NCBI GenBank assembly: GCA_000004695.1
Contig: CM000150.2
Span: 4,736,001-4,800,000, forward strand
DNA length: 64,000 nt
Direction: 5' to 3'
Source: Dictyostelium discoideum
Taxonomy: Eukaryota
The first letter of the stretch is position 1. Each line of letters opens with the position of its first letter. Shown piece by piece: positions 1,656 to 62,577 of this stretch. The notes beneath the pieces are model-generated. The model had not been told where the DNA came from, did not search any database, and worked only from the letters and a program-made list of their open reading frames with translations. Both the position numbers and the translations under genes were made by a program.

Positions 1656-4194
1656 TTAAAAGTTATTTCTTTGTTGGGGATTTTGTTGAAATTGTTGAAA
1701 ATGGGATGGAATAAAATTTTGTGATTGGTTATAATAATTTGAACCATATGCTTTGTATTGATTTGAAATGTCAGATTGTTGACCTTGTTGTTGTTGTTGT
1801 TGTTGTTGTACTTGTGGGATAGAGTTTACTTGATGATGGGTTGGGTTAAAAGTGTTTTGTTTTGGATTGGTTGGTGAACCAGCTGCTAATTGTGGACTAC
1901 CTTGATTGTTAAGTGGTTTTTGTTGTGATGGATCTTGGAAGTTGGAGTATTGTGGTTGTTGTGGTTGTTGTTGTTGTTGTGGTTGTTGTTGTTGATTTTG
2001 TTGTTGTTGTGGATAACCGTACATTCCTTTGTTGAAGTCTTGTTCTTCGGCAGAATAACCTTGTTGTGGGTGTTGTGGGTAACCACGACCAACATTCATA
2101 TGGTATGGTTTATGATAGTATGGATATTGGACTTGTTGATGATAGTAGTATGGATATTGTGGGTATTGGAATGGCATGAATGGTGCATGGTTGTTTTGTT
2201 GGAGTGGTGGTGATTGTGAACTTGGTTGATTTTGGTTGTTGGTTGGGTCTTGGTGTTGTTGGAATTTACCGTCTTGTTGAACTTGGACTTGTTGTTGTTG
2301 TTGTTGTTGTTGTCCTCTGTAGGTTGGGTTGGCATTACCACTATTTCTGAATTGCTTGTTGGCAGTGTTATCGTTAACTGGTGAAGTGGTTCTGTTGTAG
2401 TTTGGTTGATAAGAGTTATCGTAGAATTGTTGTCTAACTCTAAAGTCGTTTTCTTGATCAAAGAAGCTTGGGACTGGTACCATATATGGTTGTTGTAAGT
2501 AGTTACCATATTGTTGGTGAATGTCATTCTCTGACATCATGTGACCATCCATTGGATTCATTGATGGCATACCACCAATTTGATTTGACATCATTGGGAA
2601 AGTTTGGTAGTGTGGAATATTGTTATTAATTTGTTGATGACCATGCATTTGTTGTTGTTGGTGTTGTTGTTGTTGTTGATGTTGTTGTGGAATAACTTGT
2701 TGTTTTGGTACTTGTTGTTGAACTTGTTGTGGTTGTTGAGTAATAGCTTGTGGTTGTTGTTGAACTTGTTGTTGAACTTGTGGTTGTTGTGGAACAATTA
2801 TTGGTTGTTGTTGAATTGGTTGAACAGTTTGTTGAACAGTAGTTGATTCAATAACAACGGTTTCGGTGGTACTTTTACCAAATTGAACTTCAAAGTTTGG
2901 ATCAAATGAAACAGAGTCTGGTAAAGCGACTGGAGTGTCACCCATTTTATTGGTTTTGAATGGTTGACGATTTGGAGTGGAAGTGGTGGTAGTGGTTGAT
3001 GGGACAGCATCTTTTGGTTTCCATGCATGAGTTGTACCTGGTTTAGAACCAAAGTTTTGTCTTGGTTGTTGTGAGGTAGTGGTAGTGACTGGTGCAGTTT
3101 GTTGTTGTTGTTGTTGTTGTTGTTGTGGAACAGCAACTGGTTGTTGAACAGTTGAAGTTGAAACAGCTTGTTGAACTGGTGAACCTGGTTGTTGAACTGG
3201 GGCAGCTGGTTGTTGAACTGGGGCAACTGGTTGTTGAGCTGGGGCAGTAGCTGATTGAACTGGAGCAGCTGGTTGTTGTACTGGTACAACTGGTGCGGTT
3301 TGAGTGGTGGCAGTTTCAACGACAACAGCATTGGTTGCAGCAACTGGAGCAGTTGGTGATGGGGTTGCAGTTTCAGTGGTGGTTGGTGCAACGACAGCTG
3401 GAGTGGTTGCGGTGGCAGTAACTGGTGCAGTTGTTGTAGTGGCAACTGGTGCGACAACAGCTGATTTTGGTTGACTGGCAGCATTAATTGCTTCTAAAAA
3501 GGTTGGGGCTGAGTTGGTGGTAGTGGTTGGTTTTGTGGTGGTTGGTGCAGCAGTGGTGGTGGTAGTGTTGGTGGTAGCAGTAGTAGTTGATGGTGATGAG
3601 GTGGTGGAGGTGGTGGCAGTAGTTGGTGCAGTGATTGATGGTGATGTGGTGGCAGTGGTGGTTGGTGTAGCAGTTGATGGTGAAGTTGTAGCAGCAGTTG
3701 AAGCAGATGTAGCATTATTTGTATTTGTAGTGGTGGTAGTGGTTGGTGATGTTGTTGATGGTTGTGAAACAGTTTGAGCTTTTTGTTTGGCTGCTTCTTG
3801 TTGTTGTTTACGTTTATTTTCACTTTCTTTTAAAATTTCAACCATAGTTTTACCACCTGTAATATTAGGGTGAAGAACATTTGATTGATCTGCTGGTGAT
3901 GCTGTTGAGGCTGCTGGTACTGTAGATGGTGTAGTTGTAGTTGTGGTTGAAGATGGAATTGATTGATCGATATCTACTGGTTTTGGAGCAGTTGGTGATA
4001 ATTGTCTCTTTTGAACATGTTGATTTGGTCCTCTATTCATTGGTGAGGATCCATTTATTCTATTATTTTTAAAATTACTATTATTATTATTATTATTGTT
4101 GTTGTTGTTGTTGTTATTGTTGTTATTGTTGTTGTTGTTCATATTATTATTTGAATTTATTTTATTACGTAATTGTTCTTTATCGCCATCTAAA

Positions 4195-40807: not shown

Positions 40808-46904
<6,097 letters not shown>

Positions 46905-57276: not shown

Positions 57277-57771
57277 TTAAGTATTCCAAGCTAAATAAAA
57301 ATCGGATACAAGTTTTCTACAAATTGAACATTGTGGATGTGAGGTTTTCTTAATTAATGTTGCACATCTTGCGCATAATCGATGACCGCATTCTCTCCAA
57401 CATACTTGTTTTTCATTTTCTTCACAAATATGACAAAATTTTTCACGCTCCAAATCAGTTTGCATCTTTTCCATTCTATCGTTTATATTGTTAATTTGAT
57501 TACCAACCCAAACACGCAAGTCTCTATTTTCACCTCTAAGATTTGAATTCTCTCTTAATAGTAATAGATTTTGTTCCTCCAAAGGTAATGGCTCACCATT
57601 TTTATTCTTTAATTTTACATGTTGAACATTTGATGGTGGAGGTGGTGTTATTGGTAAGAATGAAGATGAAGTTGTAGTTGTTGTAGTTGTTGTTGTAGTA
57701 GTTTGTTGAACATGGTTATGATGATTATTATTATTATGGCTATGGTTATGGTTATGATGGATATGGTTATT

Positions 57772-57814
<43 letters not shown>

Positions 57815-58092
57815 GGTGGTGGAATGACATCTTGGTTTATATAATTGTATTGATTAAAATTATCTACACCATTTTCAGCATTATTATTCTCAAAGGCACC
57901 TGCTGGTCCTATACCAATTTCATCATCTGATGTTAAAAAATAATAAGCCAAACCAAGTCCTGCCACAATTGTCGTCCACAAGTATGGCGATTTTAAATGT
58001 TCTTTTAAGTCAAAATTTAATACACTTTCAACTTTTATTGGTGCACCTTTTGTAAAATATTTAAATGCAAAATCTTCTTCCAATGGATCCAT
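57277..58092 (-). CDS. Membrane-anchored C3HC4 RING-finger protein (probable E3 ubiquitin ligase), 271 aa, single exon.
   Basis: Complete ATG..TAA ORF. TM helix LWTTIVAGLGLAYYFL, polyQ/His-Asn-rich linker, coiled-coil (RENSNLRGENRDLRVWVGNQINNINDRMEKMQTDLERE), and a C-terminal RING: CHICEENEKQVCWRECGHRLCARCATLIKKTSHPQCSICRK. Confidence 0.7.
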
Positions 58093-59071: not shown

Positions 59072-59650
59072 ATGATTAGATCCAGAAATTCAAATCCAAA
59101 TAGATTGAAAAATCTATTTTTAAACAAATATAGCTTTTTCTTATTTATTACAATTATATTATATTATTATTTTTCTTTTAATATTCAAAAGACAATTGAT
59201 CACCAACCAATTACAGTCCACTCAGAAACACAACCACAACAAAAAGAACCAATAAATAAATTACAATATGTTCAAAAATTAATTGATGATAATAAATTAA
59301 TAATATTTTCAAAAACTTATTGTGGCTTTTCAAAGAGAATTAAACAATTATTTAAAACAATTGATGGTGTAACACCAATGATTGTTGAATTGGATATAAT
59401 AGATGATGGAACTGAAATTCAATCAATTTTAAGTGGAATATCAAACATTCGTACAGTTCCTCAACTTTTTATTAATGGTAAATTCATTGGTGGAAATGAT
59501 GGTAAGTTTTTTTTATTTTATTTTTGGAAGAAAAAACTTTTACTAACTTGGAATTTTTTTTTTTTTCCCAAAAATAAATAATTAGCAACTCAACAATTAC
59601 ATTCAGAAGGAAAACTGATACCTTTATTAAAGGAAGCAAATCTTTTATAG
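59072..59650 (+). CDS. Glutaredoxin with an N-terminal hydrophobic anchor or targeting segment and a CGFS active-site motif. Exons 59072..59501 and 59586..59650; about 164 aa.
   Basis: KLIIFSKTYCGFSKRIKQLF...TVPQLFINGKFIGGNDG is a glutaredoxin fold (active site C-G-F-S; TVP cis-Pro; GG motif). Donor G|GTAAGT at 59502, intron with TACTAAC at 59550, acceptor AATTAG at 59585, then ATQQLHSEGKLIPLLKEANLL*. Residues 20-37 (SFFLFITIILYYYFSFNI) are hydrophobic. Confidence 0.7.
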
Positions 59651-59839: not shown

Positions 59840-62574
59840 CTAATCCCAACTTTCTTCAATGGTTGGAATATCAGATAATGTATCTAATAATGGATTACCA
59901 CTAGAGTCAGTTGTTGATGTAGTTGTGGTTGAATTACTTGAGTTAACACGATGTTGTTCAATTGGTTCATTTGGAGCACTAGAAGCAGTTGAAGAGGCAG
60001 TGGTGGCAGAGTTGTTATTGTTGTTATTATTATTATTATTGTTGTTATTACTGCTGTTATTATTATTATTACTACTTGTAGTAGTATTATTGAATTTACT
60101 AGTGAATGGTGGAGTTGAAATTGTTGGATTTTCTTCATGAGCATTTGCAAGTCTATGAACTTCATCTTTAACAGATTCTTTAATATCTTCTCTGAGATAT
60201 TCTTTTAATTCATCATTAAATTCTTTTTTGAAACCATCACGAATCTCATGATTTGGATCATCAACACCCAATTGATTCTCCCAATCATCGATTTGTTCAT
60301 TGAGTTCTTCTTCCACTTCACTATCGGATAATTCATCAATGATTTCATCTATTTCTTTATCCATTTCCTCTTCAAATTCTTGTTTATTGAATTTCTTTTC
60401 TTGATTATTGTTTAATTCTTTTTCATTTTCCAATTTCTCTTCAATTTCATTCTCATCTTGAACTAAATCATCATCAATTAATGATTTTGCTTCTTTTAAT
60501 TCATTCTCTTGTTTTAATTCCTTTTCAACTTGATCTGATAGATCGAATTCATTCAAATGATTTAATTTATCATTTTCTTCAACTGGATCAAATGAGAATG
60601 AAATCTTTGGTTTTAATTCCTCTTCTTCTTCTTCCTTTGGTTCTTCTTCTGGTTCTTCATTTTCTTCTTCTTCTTCTTCTTCTTCTTCTGGTTCTTCTTC
60701 TTCCTCTTCCTCTGGTACAACTTCATCATTCATTATATTATTATTTAATAATTGAGGAACCATTACATCATTATCATCACCATCAAATTCTTGATCTTCT
60801 TGTTCACTTTCATCAAGAATTCTTCTTTTTAAAATTTCATTTTCAATTTCTTTTTCCAATTGTTTTTGTAATTTTTGTTCTTCAATTCTTTCAATTTCTT
60901 GTTCTAATTGATCGATAATACCTTGTTCATTTTCTTTTTCAATTTGTTGTTCACCAAATTCTTCATCATTATCTTCTTGTTCTTCTTGTTCTTCTTCCTG
61001 TTCTTCTTCCTGTTCTTCTTCTTGTTCTTCTTCTTGTTCTTCTTCTTGTTCTTCTTCTTCTTCTTGTTCACTTTCTTCTTGTCTTCTCTTTTTAATTTCG
61101 GTTTCAATTTCTTTTTCTAATTGTTTTTGAATTTCTTGTTCTTCTTCTTTTTCCATTTGACTATCTAATTCATCAACAATGTTTTGATCTTCTTTACTTA
61201 ATTTTTGATAATTTAATTCTTTTGGTTTTAAATCTTTAATTGTATCAAATGAAAGAGGAATATTTGCAGTACGTTTTGAAAGAATAGGTTTAACATCAAT
61301 TTGCATTGGTGATTGTTCAACTACACCCAAGGTATGAGATGGAAATTGTGGATGATGTTTCATTGCTGATTTTTCAACTTTTTTACTTTGTTTTGGACTT
61401 GCAATTGTTGATTCAGATTTTGATTTTGATAAATTGAAACGAACACTCTTACGAGGGACAAATGCATTGGCAGTTGGTTTTAAAACTGATGTTGATTTAT
61501 TCATATTTCTTAATTGTGTTAAACGACTACCACCAGTATTTGATTGTAATTGTTGTTGTTGTTGTTGTTGTAGTTGTTGAAGTTGTTGTGGTGATTGTTG
61601 TAGTTGTTGTTGTTGTTGATTTTTAACACCACCATGTTCTTTATAATAACTATGGATACATTCATCTAATAGAATTGGGAATAAATGTTTAATTGCTCTT
61701 GGAATGTGTTCTTTACCTTTAACATTTTTATTCCAAATATGAATCATGTTGAAATCCATTCCTTGTTTCTTTCTAATTGAAATTCCACAAATATCATCAT
61801 TATCTTGTAAATATGAACTAAATTGTTCACCAATAACGGATAAAACCAATTCATTCCAAACTTCATCTCTTTTTTAATTTAAAAAAAAAAAAAAAAATAA
61901 TTAATAACATTTTAAATTATTTTTTATTTTATTTATTTCTTTCTTAATCAAATAAACTTACGTTTGGTGTTTTTTAACCTTCATTACAAATTCACCACCA
62001 TCTTGATTCTCTTCCCAAATTGGACGTGTTCCTTTTTTAAATAGATGAAAGCATGAATTATTTGGTAATTTGGATAAACTTGGGATTATATTGAAACAAT
62101 TCCAAAAAGCCTTTTGTTTTTATTTTTTAAAAAAAAAAAAAAAAAAAAAATAAAATAAAATATATAAAAATAATTAATTAAAATAATAATAATAAAAAAA
62201 AATTAGTATTTGTTTATTTTATTAAATTATTTATAATTTTTATTTTTAAAAAAAATAAAAATAAACAGTAAAAAAAAAAAAAAAAAAAAAAAATTAATTA
62301 ATTAATACATTACTTGAATTGTTGAAAATGAATTTAATTGAGTTAATGCATTTAAATATTCATCAATTGAGGCAACTGAATTATTATTATTTGTGTAATG
62401 ATCTTCCCAAAATGACCATTCATTTTCTAATACTAATTCTTCATGAACATCTTTATGTTGAAGTGGTTGAGGATTTTCAGATGATAATTGTTGAGGTTGA
62501 TGTTCTTGAGCGATGAAAATTTGTTTCTTTTTTTTATTTTCCTTATCAGTGAAACTATTTAAAAATATTTCAGT

Positions 62575-62577
<3 letters not shown>
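59840..62577 (-). CDS. eIF4E-family cap-binding protein with a long, highly acidic (Glu-rich coiled-coil), polyQ- and polyN-containing C-terminal extension. Exons complement(62314..62577), complement(61962..62110) and complement(59840..61868); about 813 aa.
   Basis: Exon 1 ..ELVLENEWSFWEDHYTN..YLNALTQLNSFSTIQ has the eIF4E W..W..F and DFW-like elements. Exon 2 AFWNCFNIIPSLSKLPNNSCFHLFKKGTRPIWEENQDGGEFVMKVKKHQ parallels eIF4E FWALYNHIQ..S.L..G.DY.LFKDGIEPMWED..N..GGRW. Exon 3 ..DEVWNELVLSVIGEQFSSYLQDNDDICGISIRKKQGMDFNMIHIWNKN parallels [41 protein letters not shown]. Donors CAA|GTAATG (62313) and AC|GTAAGT (61961); acceptors AAAACAAAAG (62111) and AAAAAAG (61869). All junctions are phase-consistent. 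Confidence 0.65.

Follow-up and report, generated by a model that had tools for sequence, protein, structure and literature searches.

Among the relatives of the cap-binding protein eIF4E, 4EHP (eIF4E2, Class II) binds the cap in a regulatory or repressive role that it exercises through proteins attached to it, and the function of Class III eIF4Es is still poorly understood. Class III is defined (Joshi et al. 2005) by a Trp at the position of human Trp-43 together with a Cys or Tyr at that of Trp-56 (PMC1260017; PMC3388326), and its members were first described, in 2005, in Metazoa only (PMC1260017). In trypanosomatids, where the eIF4E family has gained extensions, a PAM2 motif in the extension of Leishmania eIF4E4, MNPNATEFMP, binds PABP1 (PMC6379680). 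Here we describe a gene in 64,000 nucleotides of Dictyostelium discoideum DNA (GCA_000004695.1, contig CM000150.2, forward-strand positions 4,736,001 to 4,800,000; this whole stretch is "the window", and positions below are counted within it). Its product joins a Class III-like eIF4E core to a C-terminal tail of about 600 residues, within which short segments are constrained as tightly as the core itself. We consider it probable that the protein is a regulatory cap-binding scaffold and not the general initiation factor: the core would bind the cap and peptides of the tail would recruit partners.

The gene and its core are laid out as follows.

59840..62577, minus strand: whole gene, ATG to stop, three exons and two introns, 813-aa product
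62314..62577, minus strand: exon 1, residues 1-88, the N-terminal lead and the start of the core with W54, W57 and Y74
62111..62313, minus strand: intron 1, 203 nt, GT..AG, 3.9% GC
61962..62110, minus strand: exon 2, residues 89-138 with the last codon split, containing W91, W120-E121 and F130
61869..61961, minus strand: intron 2, 93 nt, GTAAGT..AG, 7.5% GC, phase 2
59840..61868, minus strand: exon 3, residues 138-813 with the stop, a single open reading frame (ORF) that runs unbroken through the C-terminal half of the core and all of the tail
61634..62445, minus strand: putative eIF4E cap-binding core, residues 45-216, spanning both introns

The start ATG, at 62577, has a long A-run just upstream, and the stop codon occupies 59842-59840. 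Intron 1 is in phase 0 after ...STIQ, with the donor GTAATG at 62313. The exons are much richer in GC (26-31%) than the introns, and the spliced coding sequence of 2442 nt is in frame throughout. Exon 3 (2,029 nt, stop-free) carries the core from W142 onward and the whole tail; at local composition (stop probability 0.09 per codon) its 676 open codons would arise by chance at ~2e-28. The comparison loci were those of D. firmibasis (L002), D. purpureum (L003) and Acytostelium (L001). In the exon structures that we rebuilt from the annotated genomic loci of the first two, both introns fall at the identical codon and phase. Intron 2 (within KKxQT|DE) is common to Acytostelium as well, where a further intron separates core and tail. 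The D. firmibasis locus is colinear with the window over 5.3 kb at 75-87% nucleotide identity, in a block of equal gene order that takes in a RING-finger gene and the glutaredoxin gene convergent with this one. The gene is a genuine social-amoeba gene of three exons, and all the exon coordinates and junctions that a sequence-only reading of the window had proposed are borne out by the in-frame joining, the GT-AG introns and the intron positions shared with orthologues.

That reading had also recognized an eIF4E-like core from the peptides WSFWEDHY, FW, IWEE, WNELV and IWNKN, all of which are present, and had named Pfam IF4E (PF01652) as the family to search. The joined product matches this family at 121.4 bits (E 3.9e-35, residues 50-194), against a gathering cut-off of 28.7, and nothing else in Pfam matches it at E up to 1. 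HMMER alignments to the PDB give 40 distinct eIF4E chains. The best is mouse eIF4E3 (4B6U; 92 bits, E 4e-25, residues 50-216 aligned), followed by eIF4E2/4EHP with 73 bits, plant eIF4Es with 62-66 bits (wheat 2IDV at 66; also 2IDR and 5ME5/5ME6) and human eIF4E1 (1IPB) with 59 bits. Identity over the core is 33% to eIF4E3, 27% to eIF4E2 and 28% to eIF4E1. Judged by these alignments, residues ~45-216 are an ordinary eIF4E cap-binding fold.

In the same alignments, W54 is the equivalent of Trp-43 and Tyr-74 that of Trp-56; Tyr-74 aligns with a Cys of eIF4E3 (4B6U) and with a Tyr of 4EHP. The other landmarks correspond as listed below; the numbering follows what we take to be the human eIF4E1 sequence, and the eIF4E3 and 4EHP mappings rest on the PDB alignments.

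Human eIF4E1 W46: W57 in the window protein
Human eIF4E1 W73: W91
Human eIF4E1 W102 / E103: W120 / E121
Human eIF4E1 W113: F130, the sole replacement among these landmarks
Human eIF4E1 W130: W142
Human eIF4E1 R157: probably R170, with K171 and K172
Human eIF4E1 W166: W183

The retained cap and dorsal residues (W54, W57, W91, W120, E121, W142, W183) are invariant across the nine dictyostelid orthologues described below. So is R170-K171-K172, which lies at or beside R157, its register varying by one residue between alignments; the column of K162 holds Met. Codons were compared with those of D. firmibasis (synonymous divergence ~0.35-0.6); for the core, the ratio of nonsynonymous to synonymous change (dN/dS) is 0.064. 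It is most likely that the core still binds the m7G cap, as we infer from the residues that it keeps.

Since W54 is retained at position 43 and Tyr-74 stands at position 56, as the published definition asks, the protein is by sequence a Class III (eIF4E3-like) eIF4E, an assignment that is a similarity ranking and not a tree. The non-canonical class suspected from the letters alone is thus specified. It is also shared by most of the closest relatives: of the 149 nearest full-core relatives in a library of 1.8 billion proteins, 112 have W/Y at the Trp-43 and Trp-56 positions, nine have W/F and five have W/C. Eight of the orthologues have Y at the second position, and Tieghemostelium lacteum has F. 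Beyond dictyostelids, relatives of the W/Y type occur in Vermistella, Stygamoeba and Balamuthia (Amoebozoa) and in Dimargaris (Fungi). The Class III signature is therefore not limited to Metazoa; its W/Y form is widespread among Amoebozoa and extends to at least one early-diverging fungus. The orthologues of Heterostelium album and T. lacteum are already annotated as "eIF4E member 3", and in the searchable literature on Dictyostelium eIF4E3 and on Class III eIF4E in Amoebozoa we found no description of this protein or of any amoebozoan Class III eIF4E. Family and class are known; what is new is the dictyostelid-specific C-terminal tail, a putative scaffold, with its constrained islands.

How does the protein compare with its described relatives? 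Like metazoan eIF4E3 (mouse, 4B6U), it keeps the Trp-43 equivalent, has the Trp-56 equivalent replaced, retains the equivalents of W73, W102/E103, W130 and W166 and is without the Ser-209 region. However, vertebrate eIF4E3 has Cys at the Trp-56 position where the window protein has Tyr, so that a classical aromatic sandwich is possible in the latter. The window protein further differs by the F at W113 and by a 2-residue insertion before the W166 strand, and metazoan eIF4E3 (207 aa) lacks the ~600-residue C-terminal tail. With 4EHP, the second-best PDB match, it shares the Tyr at the Trp-56 position, but 4EHP has Tyr at Trp-43, where the window protein has Trp. In addition, 4EHP recruits its partners via its dorsal surface and has no tail of its own.

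Exhaustive protein searches and a profile search gathered nine orthologous dictyostelid proteins of 302-793 aa; the 813-aa window protein itself was absent among the matches of the protein searches.

D. citrinum (two proteins): 759 and 793 aa
D. dimigraforme: 752 aa
D. firmibasis: 724 aa
D. purpureum: 682 aa
Polysphondylium violaceum: 627 aa
Tieghemostelium lacteum: 453 aa
Heterostelium album: 515 aa
Acytostelium subglobosum: 302 aa

The closest, those of D. citrinum, D. dimigraforme and D. firmibasis, are 82-85% identical to it, and across more distant genera the tails are unalignable. Relatives in other Amoebozoa and in Fungi have 224-466 aa and are without this C-terminal tail. By these comparisons the tail is specific to dictyostelids and its length depends on the lineage. 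This adds to the sequence-only reading a range of protein length from 302 to 813 aa among dictyostelids and, as far as the sequences gathered tell, the absence of the tail from other Amoebozoa.

The tail (residues ~217-813, 597 aa) is strongly acidic. Glu makes up 22% of residues 221-813 (593 residues), in which 170 acidic residues stand against 61 basic ones. Its parts are listed here from its beginning to its end.

61541..61621, minus strand: polyQ linker, residues 221-247, length differing among species
61382..61537, minus strand: island A, residues 249-300, in a disordered Ser/Lys-rich stretch
61031..61195, minus strand: internal repeat copy 1, residues 363-417, holding QKQLEKEIETEIKKRR, at the start of predicted helix 363-435
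60962..61081, minus strand: (EEEQ)n / polyE run, residues 401-440, length differing among species
60767..60934, minus strand: internal repeat copy 2, residues 450-505, holding QKQLEKEIENEILKRR, over predicted helix 448-497
60614..60715, minus strand: polyE/Pro run, residues 523-556, variable
60134..60613, minus strand: conserved acidic region, predicted helical, residues 557-716, islands C and D
59942..60133, minus strand: polyN/S/T low-complexity stretch, residues 717-780, with a predicted local confidence (pLDDT) below 50
59843..59941, minus strand: conserved C-terminal island, residues 781-813, ending ...LLDTLSDIPTIEESWD

The order of polyQ, E/K/Q-rich sequence with (EEEQ)n and polyE, and polyN/S/T, and the length of about 600 residues, are as the sequence-only reading claimed. 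Its E/K-rich coiled-coil stands in part: long helices are indeed predicted by AlphaFold, but a coiled-coil is not established. A full-length AlphaFold run on an alignment of the nine orthologues predicts helices at 363-435, 448-497, 582-626 and 633-716 with pLDDT ~65-85 (69-85 for the first) and values below 50 between them. Modelled alone, residues 555-722 give five predicted helices (pLDDT 77, predicted TM-score (pTM) 0.42). A Foldseek search of this model against the PDB returned nothing at E <1, the top non-significant match being lambda GamS. Across the two models the long helices lie at pLDDT 70-89. The models thus support a helical tail. The two repeat copies, 363-417 and 450-505 (45-55 residues each; local alignment score 142), flank the (EEEQ)n tract, and each holds QKQLEKEIExEIxKRR followed by an acidic run. 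In one D. citrinum orthologue (P0167), residues ~385-420 show a further tandem triplication of a EEQEVQKPIDKE unit, that is, ongoing repeat turnover within the coding sequence. A regular expression for the EKEIExEI-type amphipathic helix matches eight of the nine orthologues; A. subglobosum gives no match and has just a looser E/K-rich helical stretch. Islands C and D contain an invariant W666 (...IDDWENQLG...), and residues 557-716 are 49% identical to D. purpureum. The canonical 4E-binding motif, YxxxxL-hydrophobic, by which a tail might fold back onto its own core, is absent from the tails of all orthologues examined.

Constraint along the tail is very uneven. Against D. firmibasis, dN/dS is 0.041 in island A and 0.034 in the C-terminal 33 residues (781-813), and it is 0.125 and 0.138 in the helical islands 557-620 and 641-716. 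It rises to 0.55-0.66 in the region 446-500 (the helix with repeat copy 2) and the acidic tract 501-556, the latter at 0.66. In close relatives, gaps reach 61% in the polyQ (221-240), 78% in (EEEQ)n (421-440) and 56% in polyE (521-540). The four close relatives are 95-100% identical over residues 261-300 of island A, which D. purpureum shares at 65-80%, and 98-100% identical over the C-terminal island. The tail therefore alternates between spacer that drifts freely and short segments under constraint as tight as that on the cap-binding domain. It is not uniformly low-complexity, a point that goes beyond the sequence-only reading, and its islands are under purifying selection as strong as that on the core. 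Since the islands are as constrained as the core, docking of partner proteins is their probable role.

A mechanism can be suggested along these lines. The cap would be sandwiched between Tyr-74 and Trp-120, aided by Glu-121 and the basic residues R170-K171-K172, and the dorsal Trp (W91) would be kept for helices of the eIF4G/4E-BP type. Most of the tail would be homopolymer filler or spacer helix, free to expand and contract in its polyQ, polyE and polyN runs. At the short constrained segments partner proteins would dock and so be brought to the capped 5' end, and the outcome would be mRNA-selective regulation at the cap. The constrained peptides are concrete candidates for the partner docking of a non-canonical cap-binding protein.

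Several points weigh against such a scaffold. With Phe or Leu in place of W113 in dictyostelids, the core may fall short of full cap affinity. From ~600 residues here the tail dwindles to ~85 in Acytostelium, and island A is absent in T. lacteum, H. album and A. subglobosum, save for one short motif in T. lacteum that resembles an RVxF site; much of the tail must therefore be dispensable over evolutionary time. Finally, the full-length AlphaFold model is of low quality (pLDDT 48 overall; even the core is below 50 and not folded) and hence says nothing on contacts between tail and core.

What might dock on island A? Two overlapping motifs in it can be mentioned.

61448..61489, minus strand: PAM2-like motif SVLKPTANAFVPRK, residues 265-278
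61436..61453, minus strand: RVxF-like motif RKSVRF, residues 277-282, followed by SKSKSES

The first suggests a specific sub-case of the scaffold reading, which we regard as possible but doubtful: the PAM2-like LKPTANAFVP would bind the MLLE domain of PABP and so link cap and poly(A); the protein would then act as a repressor or as a 5'-3' bridge that does without eIF4G. The core of the motif, L267-K-P-T-A-N-A-F-V-P276, fits the spacing hydrophobic-x-(P/V)-x-A-x-x-F-x-P given for PAM2 (PMC6379680), and the pattern [LMF]x[PV]xAxxFxP never arose in 20,000 shuffles of the tail. The motif lies in predicted disorder (pLDDT <50) within the most constrained island of the tail. Reports on PAM2 also cover D. 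discoideum: the PAM2 of ataxin-2 has been surveyed across protists including this species, and the PAM2-1 of eRF3 is apparently present in it (PMC4105795, PMC2811017). Against PABP binding, the motif was identified after the fact, and it reads LKPSSNAFVP in D. purpureum and LRPSSNAFIP in P. violaceum, so that the key Ala is Ser in both. T. lacteum, H. album and A. subglobosum lack it. Pfam PAM2 (PF07145) gives no match to peptides of island A at E up to 10, in a search where HMMER filters drop weak short hits. Moreover, position 4 is K or R, and the strict ELM expression LIG_PAM2_1, which we take to require Asn or Ser there, fails in all orthologues.

A known parallel is trypanosomatid EIF4E3 and EIF4E4, in which an eIF4E core is likewise combined with a long, mostly disordered extension bearing a PAM2-type motif (PMC6379680), and where the cap-binding protein is itself the scaffold. 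The motif there is biochemically proven in Leishmania, whereas that of the window protein is a sequence resemblance with non-canonical positions. The trypanosomatid extensions are N-terminal and of ~150-200 aa, in contrast to the C-terminal one here, and those proteins form a clade of their own, neither Class I, II nor III, unlike the Class III-like core of the window protein. The sequence-only reading had compared the gene with the extended eIF4Es of kinetoplastids; this is a reasonable analogy but not homology, because the extensions there are N-terminal and the clade is a different one. The likeness in PAM2, if real, would be convergence. PABP recruited by the tail would then link the 5' and 3' ends without eIF4G, or repress, as a convergent counterpart of trypanosomatid eIF4E4, and if the motif is functional, direct bridging of eIF4E and PABP would have arisen a second time, independently. 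The candidate peptide for binding to PABP MLLE is NKSTSVLKPTANAFVPRKS, with F274 and P276.

Directly after the PAM2-like motif, RKSVRF matches the RVxF docking expression of PP1, [RK]-x(0,1)-[VIL]-{P}-[FW]. Such a pattern is common by chance (P ~0.4 per tail; 0.53 expected per shuffled tail), and therefore only its conservation counts: it is KTVRF in D. purpureum and P. violaceum and KHVSF in T. lacteum. A longer peptide, NKSTSVLKPTANAFVPRKSVRFN, with F274, V280 and F282, is a candidate ligand for both PABP MLLE and the PP1 catalytic subunit.

A third motif closes the protein. DxP[TA][IL]E occurs within the last 10 residues of the orthologues of D. purpureum, T. lacteum, H. album and A. subglobosum, and when the tail is shuffled, P[TA][IL]E[ED] falls among its last 10 residues with a probability of 1.5e-4. 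The C-termini read:

Window protein: DIPTIEESWD
D. purpureum: DQPTIEEEEW
T. lacteum: DKPTIEKI
H. album: DVPTLEEDD
A. subglobosum: DPAIEDIYE

They recall the PTIEEVD end of Hsp70, a ligand of TPR and class B J-protein domains, on which CHIP makes contacts that depend critically on the P1 Asp, the P2 Val and the carboxylate (PMC8913300). P-T-I-E-E is identical, it lies at most 10 residues from a free acidic C-terminus, and the window protein ends in Asp. However, the register is off by one (PTIEE-SWD against PTIEE-VD), and the protein of D. purpureum ends in Trp, that of T. lacteum in Ile. As an EEVD-type ligand of TPR or J-domain proteins, which calls for I/M-E-E-V-D-COOH with P1 Asp, P2 Val, P5 Ile and free carboxylate in register, the motif does not qualify: PTIEE is followed by SWD, EEW, KI or DD, depending on the species. 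Since the register and the terminal residues critical for CHIP are not conserved, membership in the EEVD type fails and the likeness is a lead only. In the P. violaceum orthologue (P0003), PTLEE is internal, at residue 522, and the annotated protein is ~100 residues longer (522-627); this extension may be a read-through in the gene model or a real lineage difference.

If the three motifs are taken together, the tail could be a self-contained platform on the cap, with the PAM2-like motif for PABP, KSVRF, possibly phospho-regulatable, for PP1 and PTIEE for a TPR or J-domain protein. We think this combination unlikely. If correct, it would make the protein the first of the Class III eIF4Es to carry its own sites for effector docking, and it would offer a tractable model for the poorly settled roles of eIF4E3-type proteins. 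Dictyostelium itself is genetically tractable.

An improbable alternative, though one with observations in its favour, is that the core is a normal eIF4E3 and the tail a functionally neutral expansion of homopolymers and low-complexity sequence, typical of Dictyostelium proteins. Its length does vary between ~85 and ~600 residues among orthologues, its polyQ, polyE and polyN runs are rich in insertions and deletions with dN/dS of 0.55-0.66, it contains neither a Pfam domain nor a fold match, and the amoebozoan relatives outside dictyostelids manage without it. Yet neutral drift does not account for the dN/dS of 0.03-0.14 in the helical islands, in island A and in the last 33 residues, which at a synonymous divergence of ~0.4-0.6 equals or approaches the 0.064 of the core, nor for a DxP[TA][IL]E motif that survives in four other genera (chance 1.5e-4) despite unalignable tails. 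That the gene model is an artefact, the tail being a separate gene or the locus a decaying pseudogene, is very improbable indeed: the unusual length of the protein and the additional Acytostelium intron dividing core from tail might suggest it, but it is contradicted because the second half of the core and the whole tail are continuous in a single 2,029-nt exon without a stop and the architecture is conserved: D. firmibasis and D. purpureum, annotated independently, keep both intron positions and phases, and Acytostelium keeps the second. In addition, dN/dS stays well under 1 in the core as in the islands of the tail.

The scaffold reading concerns one gene in a window of ~22% GC whose intergenic DNA is poly(A)/poly(T), as is usual in dictyostelid genomes, and in whose 64 kb there are no tRNA genes. 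Other features in it are these.

59072-59581, plus strand: glutaredoxin-like ORF with a CGFS-type motif, convergent with the eIF4E gene and ~260 nt past its stop; as listed, it reads through into a probable intron
57277-58092, minus strand: 271-aa ORF at the place of the D. firmibasis RING-finger gene (PF13920)
1656-4142, minus strand: 828-aa ORF with a polyN start, then very rich in Thr, Pro, Ala and Gln; local GC 42% and GC skew 0.5, against the ~22% GC background
42138-46904, minus strand: 1588-aa ORF enclosing 44001-46000, a second compositional outlier (GC 34%, GC skew 0.39, AT skew -0.36)

C-terminal extensions of another kind occur in the eIF4E-like proteins P0038, P0047, P0077, P0099 and P0141. 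These are Ser/Arg-rich, 250-450 residues long, and end in a hydrophobic stretch of ~20 residues resembling a tail-anchor transmembrane segment; the five may be membrane-tethered cap-binding proteins.

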